From NCBI RefSeq assembly GCF_056712565.1, contig NZ_CM160072.1: DNA of 64,000 nt, one strand, 5' to 3'. Made by a program: the position numbers. How positions within the stretch are numbered: the stretch's first letter is position 1; every line of letters begins with the position of its first letter. This document shows, one piece after another, positions 12,001 to 15,000 of this stretch.

Positions 12001-15000
12001 GCCCCTAACACGAAATAGAGCATCGGAATAAAACCAATGGCGATTTGCAGATAGCCAAATGAGATCGCTGCAAATCCCCATCTCGGCCCCAGAGTATTTG
12101 ATACCCAGGCGAAGACGCCACCTTCTTCCCAGCCGTCGACGGTAGCCATTTCCGCAGCACAAAGTCCCACGGGAATAAACCATAAAATCCCGCCTAATAG
12201 CAGGAAGAAGACTAATGAAAAGCCCGATGTTGCGAAGGTAGGGTATTCATAAACAGCCATTACCATCGATGCCGTTATGGCAAAAAATCCGAGTAATGTG
12301 AGCTGCTTAGCTTTACCTGTCTGTACTGATGTAGCCATATTATCCCCCTAAAACGGTATTCCTGTCGGAACCGCACCTGTTTTGTTCTGAAGCGTATTCA
12401 GAACAATATTTTCCGTTGCTAATGCCAGTGAACAGACTTTGGAAATTGTCCCGAAACGGCTTCGTTTCGGGACACCGTTACCGTTAAACGTTATCAGGTG
12501 TGTTTAAAGCTGTTCTGCTGGGCAATACCCTGCAGTTTCGGGTGGTCGCTGAGATATTTCAGGGAGGCTTTGTAGTCTTCCAGCAACAGTTCAGCAAAGT
12601 CCATTTCGAAGCCGCGACGACACATAATGCGCATCACCACGATGTCGGTGGCTTCACCGCCGAGAGTGAAGGCCGGAACCTGCCAGCCGCGCAGACGCAG
12701 ACGTTCAGAGAGGTCATACAGGGTGTATCCCGGATCTTCACCATCTTTCAGTTTGAAGCAAACCGCCGGGATGCCTTCGTCCGGGCGACCGGTACAGATG
12801 AACTCATACGGCCCCAGTTTGGCGATTTCATCCGCCAGATAAGCAGCAACCTGGTAGGAAGCGTTCTGTACTTTGGTATAGCCTTCACGACCGAGGCGCA
12901 GGAATTCATAGTACTGTGCAATCACCTGACCCGCCGGGCGGGAGAAGTTGATGGCGAAAGTACCAATCTGACCGCCGAGGTAGTCAACGTTGAACACCAG
13001 TTCCTGCGGCAGCGCTTCTTCATCACGCCAGATAACCCAGCCGCAGCCCAGCGGAGCCAGACCGAATTTATGGCCTGAAGCACTGATCGATTTCACACGC
13101 GGCAGGCGGAAGTCCCAGACGATATCCGGGGCGACGAACGGTGCCAGGAAGCCACCGCTGGCGGCGTCGATGTGCATGTCGATGTCGATACCGGTGTCGG
13201 CCTGGAATTTATCCAGCGCATCGTGCAGCGGCTGCGGGAACTCATAGTTACCGGTGTAGGTCACGCCGAAAGTCGGCACCACGCCGATGGTGTTTTCGTC
13301 GCAGGCTTCAATCATGCGTTTCGGGTCCATAAACAACTGACCGGGGCGCATAGGGATCTCACGCAACTCCACATCCCAGTAGCGGGCGAATTTATGCCAG
13401 CAGATTTGTACCGGACCGCACACCAGGTTCGGTTTGTTAGTCGGCTTACCTGCAGCTTCCATACGCTTGCGCCAACGCCATTTCATCGCCATCCCGCCGA
13501 GCATACAGGCCTCGGAAGAACCAATGGTGTTGGTGCCAACGGCCTGACCATTTTTCGGTGCAGGCGCATGCCACAGATCGGCAACCATGTTTACGCAACG
13601 CAGATCGATTGCTGCAGATTGCGGATATTCTTCTTTGTCGATCCAGTTTTTGTTAATGGATAAATCCATCAACTTATGGACATTATCGTCGTCCCAGGTC
13701 TGGCAGAAAGTGGCCAGGTTCTGACGAGCGTTGCCATCAAGATATAATTCATCATTGATAATCTGGAATGCGACATCATCACGCATTTCGTGCAGCGGAA
13801 AACGTTTTGATTCTGCGATAGTGGAAATAGACTTCGCACCAAAACGTGAATCGAGTAGTTCCGACCTTAAATCCGTTACTTGCTTCTTATCCATTTTAAA
13901 CTCCTTAAAATGATTGGATCGCATTAAAAAAGTAGGATTTATCGATAAAGTAAGCAAGTGCAAAGGACTCGGTTTTAAATAACAAAATCCTAATGTTATT
14001 TATCGCGAGATATTGCGTGAATAATGTATTTTTATTAAAAAACAACATAATAGAGAATTCTGTGTGGAGGTAAGGTGTTTTATGTTGTTATTTTATGTGT
14101 TTTCTATCGTCTCCTGAATTATCACGTAAAAATCAGACCTTATAATATCATTATTAGTACACGGTTATTTACTTTGAACACATTTATAAATTATTACATA
14201 AAAATAGCGAATATTGATAAAATCCCCGCCAACGATGTGTTGACGGGGCTGTGATTATTTTGGCAATAATACTCCGGTATAGGTATTCACCGGATGAGAA
14301 AGATATTGTTTAACAGCAGTGTTAACATTCTCTACCGTCATTTGTTTCAACAATTGCTCCTGCTCAGTCCATGCTGCAGGATCGTCATATTGAATAAGAC
14401 TATTTACAATGGTATTCGCTAATTGTTGAACGCTACGCTGTTGGATATCGAGGCTGCGCTGAACGTTTTGCTGGTATTCGTTCAGTTCTTGCTCACTAAT
14501 CCCTTTGGCCAGACGCTTAACCATCACTTCATTCGCTAACGTTAACAGTTCATCATGTCGTTCTGGTTGACAAGTAAAAGCCAGCAAATGACTGATATCT
14601 TTGGCCTGAGGATCAACCGAGAGGCGAGAAGAAACGCTGTATGCTCCAGATGCCTGTTCACGAATATTAATGCGTAGATCTTTTGCCAGTGCGACGTTAA
14701 AAGCATCGAGCGCCATACGCGTCGCCAGATTAACAGGAGTCCGGGAATTATAACGCTTCCACTGTGAAACCTGTGCCACTGGTTCATTTTGTTCTTTTAC
14801 AGTAACCGATGCGTTGTCCGTCGCGCGAGTTAATGGTTTACCTGCGGCTAATGGCGAATCAGAGTGTTTGATTGATCCTAAGTAACGCGTAATTAACGCC
14901 ACGAGTTTGTCTTCTGCGACATTACCGACAATGACAAACGTGATATCCGCTGGAGATGAAAACAACTGGCGATCGGCAGCCAGCGCATCTGCGGCAGTAA

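Follow-up and report, generated by a model that had tools for sequence, protein, structure and literature searches.

The interval 13964-14254 of the window, by which we mean the whole stretch of 64,000 nucleotides that was analyzed, is the extensively studied regulatory DNA of the gadBC acid-resistance operon of E. coli, a correct but ordinary identification. Almost certainly it is the regulatory region of this glutamate-dependent acid-resistance operon in an E. coli of the phylogroup B2 type and works as it does in K-12; nothing that we found contradicts this. The GAD box, the GadE-RcsB heterodimer, the RcsB box, and the control of gadBC by H-NS and GadX were all already known (2001-2015), and the identification carries little weight as a discovery. 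We computed here which elements are present, where they lie, how unique and how conserved they are, and which genes flank them; binding and regulation are taken from publications on identical sequences of K-12 or Shigella. We infer the behavior of the operon in this particular strain from K-12. The features are as follows.

10803-12338, minus strand: gadC, glutamate/GABA antiporter, second gene of the operon (open reading frame; TIGR00910; UTI89 annotation)
12494-13894, minus strand: gadB, glutamate decarboxylase (TIGR01788; RefSeq CDS 12494-13894)
13895-13922, minus strand: 5' untranslated leader of gadB (identity to K-12)
13901-13906, minus strand: Shine-Dalgarno sequence AAGGAG in the gadB leader (sequence)
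13929-13934, minus strand: -10 element TACTTT, with C at -13 (sequence and the published description of the RcsB box and -10)
13933-13944, minus strand: RcsB box CGATAAATCCTA, a repression site known from gadA (sequence; extent according to the text of PMC2887963)
13936-13945, minus strand: H-NS motif match TCGATAAATC, 9/10 to tCGATAAATT, overlapping the RcsB box (motif search)
13952-13957, minus strand: -35 element TTGCTT (sequence; 17 bp upstream of the -10)
13974-13993, minus strand: GAD box TTAGGATTTTGTTATTTAAA, GadE-RcsB activator site, binding known from K-12 (exact match, 20/20)
13994-14107, minus strand: AT-rich distal promoter DNA, B2-type allele, the most variable stretch (GC 26-29%)
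14121-14140, minus strand: predicted GadX/GadW-type site AGGTCTGATTTTTACGTGAT (19/20 to the consensus AKGKCTGWTWTTWWYMYVAK)
14224-14248, minus strand: intrinsic terminator of pqqL (terminator scan)
14255-17050, minus strand: pqqL, M16 metallopeptidase, bounding the regulatory region upstream (open reading frame and annotation)

The operon, its boundaries, and its core promoter

The gene directly downstream of the region matches the glutamate decarboxylase profile TIGR01788 with 692 bits (cut-off, 380), and the gene after it matches the GadC profile TIGR00910 with 1024 bits (cut-off, 673); gadC is also annotated in the identical region of UTI89. The decarboxylase is gadB and not gadA, because gadC follows it and pqqL precedes it. 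It truly begins at the ATG 13894-13892 (minus strand), and the N-terminus that it encodes is the same as that of K-12 gadB. A mechanical list of open reading frames extends gadB from a TTG and lets it reach 13963; we consider this version an artifact. Positions 13700-14400 are 100% identical to UTI89, S88, ATCC 11775, and other strains, in which the flanks are annotated as gadB and pqqL. In a direct comparison, colinearity of the window with UTI89 ends at 27363, and the filamentous-phage-like segment of UTI89 is absent from the window.

On the upstream side, the terminator of pqqL begins 7 bp past the stop codon of this gene (14255) and consists of a 10-bp stem with seven G-C pairs, followed by a T-run; it is kept in all aligned alleles except for one loop position. 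The RefSeq start of pqqL in UTI89 is 17038. In an Rfam search of the whole window, neither the region nor its surroundings matched an RNA family. Intergenic open reading frames of 20-59 amino acids were judged spurious, as they lie in AT-rich DNA and are annotated in no genome; the ATG of one of them (47 amino acids), at 14048, is not conserved in K-12.

We infer that transcription of gadB starts at 13921 ± 1, approximately 27-28 nt before the ATG. This start was placed by identity to K-12 in combination with the primer names gadB-173 and gadB+77 (PMC3050690) and with ChIP-exo distance-to-TSS values, and the sources for the position transferred from K-12 disagree by 1-2 nt. The -10 element TACTTT is invariant in every aligned gadA-type and gadB-type promoter. 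The C at -13 contributes to sigma-S preference. In the -35 region, CTTGC is invariant across Escherichia species. A generic sigma-70 promoter scan did not call the gadB promoter, which is expected because its hexamers match the consensus at only about 6 of 12 positions, but does not count in favor of the promoter either; the scan returned two other promoter-like sites, a number at chance level (2.8 expected).

The GAD box

An exact 20-bp GAD box about 90 bp upstream of the gadB ATG was the central claim of the earlier note, and it holds to the letter: TTAGGATTTTGTTATTTAAA is found without mismatches at 13974-13993, on the minus strand, which is the coding strand of gadB, and it spans 80-99 bp upstream of the ATG with its center at 89.5 bp. 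It is the sole match in the 64-kb window when up to three mismatches are permitted (0.01 expected from shuffles). Relative to the start at 13921-13922 transferred from K-12, the box is centered at -61.5 to -62.5 and extends from about -52 to -72. It is separated from the -35 element TTGCTT by 16 bp, the distance at which PMC2887963 places the GAD box upstream of the -35. Alignment with the K-12 gadB promoter, which the note had proposed as a check, confirmed that the box is present there and identical, and the K-12 gadA promoter also has it, letter for letter. The genes downstream of it are gadB and gadC, both activated by GadE in K-12.

The box is under strong constraint, as its invariance across genomes and Escherichia species shows. 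A 31-mer that contains it occurs unchanged in 5,364 of 5,426 complete E. coli genomes, and none of the 20 columns of the box varies among seven diverse alleles. Nor does the box change in E. albertii, E. whittamii, or Escherichia sp. E1V33, which together with E. coli makes four Escherichia species, while the flanks diverge.

Published GadE ChIP data for the identical K-12 sequence, the other check that had been suggested, also agree. In K-12, the GadE ChIP-exo peak of gadBC is centered at -62.5, GadE acts as an activator, and deletion of gadE results in log2 changes of -6.44 for gadB and -5.9 for gadC (PMC4918353). The same study quotes the 20-bp GAD box consensus and calls its own GadE ChIP-exo motif "mostly consistent" with the 20-mer. 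The 15-mer printed there, TTARGAWWWWAAATA, does not match the GAD box within two mismatches, and we dropped it as a search pattern, since the printed string is only an abbreviated logo. For gadA, whose box is identical, a footprint showed binding by the GadE-RcsB heterodimer, and the footprint together with the M1 mutation established that the box is needed for activation (PMC2887963); judging from gadA, GadE binds the box not alone but as a GadE-RcsB heterodimer.

AT-rich DNA, H-NS, and the RcsB box

The description of 13964-14254 as very AT-rich proved accurate: its GC content is 29.9% versus 46.8% for the window. The earlier note took this composition as typical of promoters of acid-fitness genes silenced by H-NS, and several lines of evidence point in this direction. 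A second match to the H-NS motif, also 9/10 and located on the plus strand at 13942-13951, overlaps TCGATAAATC. Within one mismatch, the window contains 15 matches to the H-NS motif versus 7.3 expected, an approximately 2-fold excess; because such matches are common in the window, we treat the motif alone as supporting evidence only. In published work, the gadB regulatory region of S. flexneri pulled down H-NS, StpA, and Sfh, all of which shifted it in EMSA. We think that the distal DNA at 13994-14107 probably serves H-NS spreading.

The AT-richness could instead be the generic composition of E. coli intergenic and promoter DNA, with H-NS acting on gadBC only indirectly, via gadE, gadX, rcsD, and RpoS. 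On the one hand, AT-rich composition is general in intergenic DNA, and H-NS control of the gad genes has been described as operating mainly via the RcsB-P/GadE complex and upstream regulators, the hns effect being partly indirect, through GadE, GadX, and RcsB (PMC2984483). On the other hand, the interval belongs to the lowest 0.5% of all 291-bp windows in GC content, and the lowest-GC 291-bp window of the entire 64 kb (26.5%) starts at 13923; the 9/10 motif match corresponds in position to its gadA homologue CGGATAAATC, which is listed among H-NS sites in Table 1 of PMC2094087 and credited there to footprinting work done earlier; the Shigella gadB region captured H-NS and StpA and was shifted by them in vitro; and H-NS is among the additional regulators of both gadA and gadBC in PMC4918353, citing RegulonDB evidence. 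We therefore consider a purely indirect role of H-NS unlikely. The assignment to the H-NS-silenced type of promoter stands as far as composition, the 9/10 motif, and the Shigella pull-down and EMSA are concerned, with the qualification that the hns effect is partly indirect.

A second motif related to the GAD box, agtaggattt, had been reported as well. The motif is real and its coordinates are exact (13931-13940, plus strand), but it lies outside 13964-14254, between the GAD box and the ATG, and it is not a GAD box: it covers the RcsB box in its right half and the first bases of the -10 element. The RcsB box CGATAAATCCTA is the same as in the K-12 gadB promoter and fits (G/C)GATAAATCCTA directly upstream of and overlapping the -10, in agreement with PMC2887963, where the RcsB box adjoins the -10 on its upstream side. 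According to the same study, RcsB alone protects the gadA box, which is strictly conserved in gadB save for a C in place of G at the left end, and RcsB alone represses gadA when overproduced; the affinity of the box is very low. Our alignment reproduces the published C/G difference at the left end between the gadB and gadA boxes.

Might the second motif nevertheless be an inverted GAD-box half-site, at which GadE-RcsB also activates or from which it loops to the main box? The motif is indeed oriented inversely to the GAD box, a stretch of 60 bp holds exactly two copies of TAGGATTT, inverted relative to each other, and PMC2887963 notes a likeness between the GAD box, in its left half, and an RcsB half-site; due to this resemblance, both motifs could contact RcsB. 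However, low concentrations of GadE plus RcsB protect only -50 to -76 on gadA, the box beside the -10 is protected there by RcsB alone at high concentration, and the M3 mutation removes the RcsB-only complex and not the GadE-RcsB complexes, i.e., the two boxes are bound independently (PMC2887963). Moreover, the second motif overlaps the -10 hexamer, which is the position of a repressor and not of an activator; it holds only the 8-9 nt of the left half, with no counterpart of the right half GTTATTTAAA; and the 8-mer is found three times in the window versus 2.4 expected, not above chance. This makes an activating half-site very improbable, and we regard the motif as part of the RcsB box and the -10 element. 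Although exact chance matches to the GAD box do exist at a large scale (three, in unrelated AT-rich metagenome bins of Lentisphaeria and Bacteroidales, in a scan of 100,044 species genomes), the idea that the 20-bp match is itself a chance event in AT-rich DNA, functionless in this strain, is extremely improbable and already refuted by the conservation data; against it stand the 0.01 matches expected per window, a distance to the gadB ATG equal to that in K-12, and invariance in 5,364 genomes and four Escherichia species next to DNA that varies at 29% of columns.

Taken as the gadBC control region, these elements suggest the following mechanism. The core promoter (-35 TTGCTT, 17-bp spacer, -10 TACTTT, -13 C) would be intrinsically weak and need an activator, and the GadE-RcsB heterodimer, bound to the GAD box at about -52 to -72, would activate transcription more than 50-fold. 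High or activated RcsB may repress through the low-affinity RcsB box CGATAAATCCTA that borders on and partly covers the -10, probably by keeping RNA polymerase off. The nucleation-type H-NS motif at the RcsB box, together with a spreading platform of approximately 70% A+T, would keep the operon silent in exponential phase at neutral pH. GadX and GadW, which are of the AraC type, may modulate expression and oppose H-NS from a site about 200 bp upstream, and the pqqL terminator would shield the region from upstream transcription.

Distal promoter DNA and comparison with known promoters

The predicted GadX/GadW-type site AGGTCTGATTTTTACGTGAT lies at about -200 to -219 and is the sole match to the consensus in the window within one mismatch (0.03 expected); none of its 20 columns varies. 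The consensus was derived by ChIP-exo as AKGKCTGWTWTTWWYMYVAK / AtGtcTGATtTttatattat, and the K-12 GadX peaks, 41 bp each, are centered at -184 and -225 (PMC4918353). When mapped via the distance to the TSS and one net indel, AGGTCTGATTTTTACGTGAT falls at the junction of these K-12 peaks.

Between the GAD box and this site, the promoter varies: among the seven alleles, 34 of 116 columns (29%) are variable in the distal stretch, versus only 2 of 79 columns from the box down to the ATG. Given the many sequence differences, the behavior of GadX, GadW, and H-NS in 13994-14107 could differ quantitatively from that in K-12. The gadB promoter also has a perfect 9-nt inverted repeat, TAAATAACA/TGTTATTTA, around TTAGGATTT (13976-14002). 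It is conceivable, if rather doubtful, that the B2 distal allele (13994-14107) alters the occupancy by H-NS, GadX, or GadW, and that B2 extraintestinal pathogens would in this way set gadBC expression unlike K-12; the inverted repeat TAAATAACA/TGTTATTTA might add to this, and the GadE-RcsB switch would be unchanged. In a clinical isolate, AR_0085, a 9.2-kb deletion halves the GAD box, of which the left half is lost. The mildly new angle of this analysis is natural variation only, namely, the lineage-specific divergence of the distal promoter and the isolate with the halved GAD box.

The K-12 gadBC promoter has reportedly been characterized by Castanie-Cornet & Foster 2001, Ma et al. 2003, Tramonti et al. 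2002/2006, and Seo et al. 2015. The promoter described here has the same flanking genes (pqqL, gadB, and gadC), and its GAD box, -35, RcsB box, -10, leader, Shine-Dalgarno sequence, GadX/GadW-type motif, and pqqL terminator are identical to those of K-12. From the box to the ATG, the two promoters differ at only two bases, directly 3' of the box (AAAACC here versus AAACAC in K-12). In contrast, approximately 30 substitutions or indels set them apart from -75 to -190 and farther out in the distal part, and the identity over the 360-bp intergenic region is approximately 91%.

The gad RcsB box differs from canonical RcsB and RcsAB sites in that it is the very low-affinity site of a repressor overlapping the -10 and not an upstream activator site. 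Compared with the high-affinity H-NS nucleation sites (tCGATAAATT; Lang et al. 2007), the putative gadB site TCGATAAATC agrees at 9 of 10 positions in surroundings of approximately 70% A+T; its gadA homologue belonged to the set of sites from which the motif was derived.

The K-12 gadA promoter, which had been used for the GadE-RcsB footprint and the mutations (PMC2887963), has the identical 20-bp GAD box at an equal distance from the -35. Both promoters share GATAAATCCTACTTTTTTA, which comprises the right part of the RcsB box and the -10, as well as the Shine-Dalgarno sequence. However, the DNA upstream beyond the box is unrelated to that of gadB, the gadA promoter is without the 9-nt inverted repeat TAAATAACA/TGTTATTTA flanking TTAGGATTT, and the genes downstream are gadA and gadX, whereas here they are gadB and gadC.

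The gadBC promoter and its GAD box

The minus-strand intergenic region between the pqqL stop codon and the gadB ATG (13895-14254, 360 bp) is the textbook gadBC promoter and was already known. The genes around it are as follows.

14255-17050, minus: pqqL, M16 peptidase gene, 931 aa
12494-13894, minus: gadB, glutamate decarboxylase gene, 466 aa (TIGR01788, 692 bits, cut-off 380)
10803-12338, minus: gadC, GadC antiporter gene, next after gadB, 511 aa (TIGR00910, 1024 bits, cut-off 673)

Both profile models are curated equivalogs. UTI89, S88, IHE3034, ATCC 11775 and other strains match 13700-14400 at 100% identity, and their flanking genes are annotated as gadB and pqqL; the K-12 gene order is likewise digH, gadC, gadB, pqqL, yddB. 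Taken together, these observations identify the decarboxylase gene as gadB; gadA is ruled out by the gadC and pqqL neighbors, which stand in the same order as in K-12.

The GAD box, TTAGGATTTTGTTATTTAAA, occupies 13974-13993 on the minus strand with 0 mismatches, and it is the sole match to this 20-mer in the 64-kb window even with 3 mismatches allowed (0.01 expected from shuffles). Its distance upstream of the gadB ATG is 80-99 bp (center 89.5), in agreement with an earlier note that had placed an exact box about 90 bp upstream. From identity with K-12, using the primer names gadB-173 and gadB+77 (PMC3050690) and ChIP-exo "distance to TSS" values (PMC4918353), we infer a transcription start at 13921 ± 1, which would put the box at about -52 to -72. 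The GadE ChIP data that the note had named as a check agree: in K-12, a ChIP-exo peak at gadBC has its center at -62.5 and is assigned an activating role, and deleting gadE lowers gadB (log2 -6.44; PMC4918353). On the identical gadA box, GadE and RcsB protect -50 to -76, GadE alone shows no binding, and a G-to-C change within the box abolishes both binding and activation (PMC2887963). Judged by that identical box, the gadB element is a GadE-RcsB site and not a site for GadE alone; with this amendment, the earlier reading of the box stands.

Conservation of the GAD box

Of 5,426 complete E. coli genomes, 5,364 carry a 100% identical copy of a 31-mer that includes the box; across the whole intergenic region, this allele is only ~90-92% identical to those of most E. 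coli strains. In an alignment of seven alleles that span the E. coli range of intergenic identity, variable columns number 0 of 20 in the box, 2 of 79 between box and ATG, and 34 of 116 directly upstream. An exact-match scan of one genome per species (100,044 species, 298 Gb) gave only 11 stretches with the box, eight of them from Escherichia (E. coli, Escherichia sp. E1V33, E. albertii, and E. whittamii). At these Escherichia loci the flanks diverge, but the box itself, placed before gadA-type or gadB-type genes, does not vary. The other three are exact 20-bp matches in unrelated AT-rich Lentisphaeria and Bacteroidales metagenome bins, a number consistent with chance for 298 Gb. Conservation within and across species, together with the K-12 experiments, supports a functional box over a coincidental match.

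E. coli and Escherichia sp. E1V33 have two exact copies, and the representative genomes of E. albertii and E. whittamii have one each, before a gadA-type gene (MDQKLL.../MEQKLL...); their gadB-type copy may be absent, or its box may have diverged. In E. coli AR_0085 (NZ_CP029741.1; 1501-1505 of the locus compared corresponds to window 13983-23204), a 9.2-kb deletion has removed pqqL, yddB, yddA, and ydeM, leaving a truncated ydeN sulfatase gene fused to gadB. The GAD box is split at this junction: only its right end (window 13974-13982) is kept, and the TTAGGATTTTG half is gone; judging by sequence, gadB of this strain should be without GadE-RcsB activation.

Upstream elements and the wider window

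Two further features lie between the box and pqqL.

14121-14140, minus: GadX/GadW-type site AGGTCTGATTTTTACGTGAT, 1 mismatch to the ChIP-exo consensus (PMC4918353)
14224-14248, minus: pqqL terminator, strong hairpin and T-run

The GadX/GadW-type motif is the sole such match in the window (0.03 expected) and is invariant across the seven alleles. Counted from the inferred start, it maps to approximately -200 to -219, around the meeting point of the two adjacent K-12 GadX ChIP-exo peaks at gadBC, -184 and -225 (PMC4918353). A direct repeat, ATTTTTAYGTRATAATT, occurs on the minus strand at 14117-14133, overlapping this motif, and 72 bp away at 14189-14205; the second copy could be a further-upstream AraC-type half-site (approximately -268 to -284). 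The intergenic region contained no RNA family in an Rfam scan of the window, no credible small ORF was found in it, and it carries no annotated feature in any genome compared.

The differences between E. coli alleles cluster at 13994-14107, directly upstream of the GAD box; ~1,040 genomes match this B2-type allele at 95% identity or more, and ~4,360 reach just 80-95% identity to it. The gadB promoter also has a perfect 9-nt inverted repeat, TAAATAACA / TGTTATTTA, on either side of TTAGGATTT at 13976-14002. This repeat is conserved in E. coli, since it lies inside the conserved 31-mer; gadA promoters do not have it, and in gadB of Escherichia sp. E1V33 it is only partly present. We consider it quite improbable that expression in B2 strains is set differently by the distal lineage-specific allele or by the inverted repeat specific to gadB.

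Elsewhere in the window, a second acid-resistance regulatory cluster, ydeO-safA-ydeP (UTI89 annotation; 24285-24722 and 24774-28334), lies 10 kb from gadB, and GC reaches another of the window's minima (27.5%) in the DNA upstream of ydeO. The only Rfam match at the gathering threshold is a full-length Hfq-binding sRNA, STnc560 (58093-58306, minus, 281.9 bits). Colinearity with UTI89 (99.98% identity) extends only to 27363, the segment 27364-29697 differs, and a 9.6-kb UTI89 segment with filamentous-phage-like genes (Zot-family protein, secretin, and replication protein II/X) next to hipBA is missing at about 35000; the strain is thus B2-like but not UTI89.

The core promoter compared with K-12 gadBp and gadAp

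Downstream of the GAD box, the core promoter comprises three elements.

13952-13957, minus: -35, TTGCTT, 16 bp from the GAD box
13933-13944, minus: RcsB box CGATAAATCCTA
13929-13934, minus: -10, TACTTT, positioned from the description in PMC2887963

The earlier note had also reported a second, related motif, agtaggattt, which is indeed present on the plus strand at 13931-13940, although outside the interval to which it was assigned. Read on the coding strand, as AAATCCTACT, the motif covers the right half of the RcsB box and runs into the first bases of the -10; we reject it as a second GAD box. Its orientation is opposite to that of the left half of the GAD box, which is known to resemble an RcsB half-site (PMC2887963); the resemblance noticed is the one those authors pointed out. 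Judged by its gadA counterpart, the RcsB box would be a low-affinity site bound by RcsB alone and implicated in repression (PMC2887963).

The description of 13964-14254 as very AT-rich holds (29.9% GC versus 46.8% for the window; lowest 0.5% of 291-bp windows), and the lowest-GC 291-bp segment anywhere in the window (26.5%) begins at 13923. Within the second-motif spot, TCGATAAATC (13936-13945, minus) matches the H-NS motif tCGATAAATT at 9 of 10 positions, and its gadA homolog, CGGATAAATC, belongs to the set of H-NS sites used to define the motif (PMC2094087). The case for H-NS involvement is drawn from the literature: the S. flexneri gadB regulatory region captured H-NS, StpA, and Sfh, with EMSA shifts for H-NS and Sfh, and H-NS is named among additional regulators of gadA and gadBC (PMC4918353). 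Along with composition and motif match, this makes direct H-NS silencing of the gadB promoter likely; we grade it no higher because a sizeable share of the hns phenotype arises indirectly, via GadE/RcsB and upstream regulators (PMC2984483).

Alignment with the characterized K-12 promoters finds the GAD box in both. According to PMC2887963, it is centered 63 bp upstream of the start and lies 16 bp upstream of the -35, and the RcsB box, directly upstream of the -10, is strictly conserved in gadB save for C in place of G at its left end, a difference visible in our gadAp alignment. Against K-12 gadBp, the stretch from box to ATG is identical save for two bases immediately 3' of the GAD box. Against K-12 gadAp, only the 20-bp GAD box, CTTGCTT (containing the -35), and GATAAATCCTACTTTTTTA (containing the RcsB box and -10) are held in common, and the rest is unrelated.
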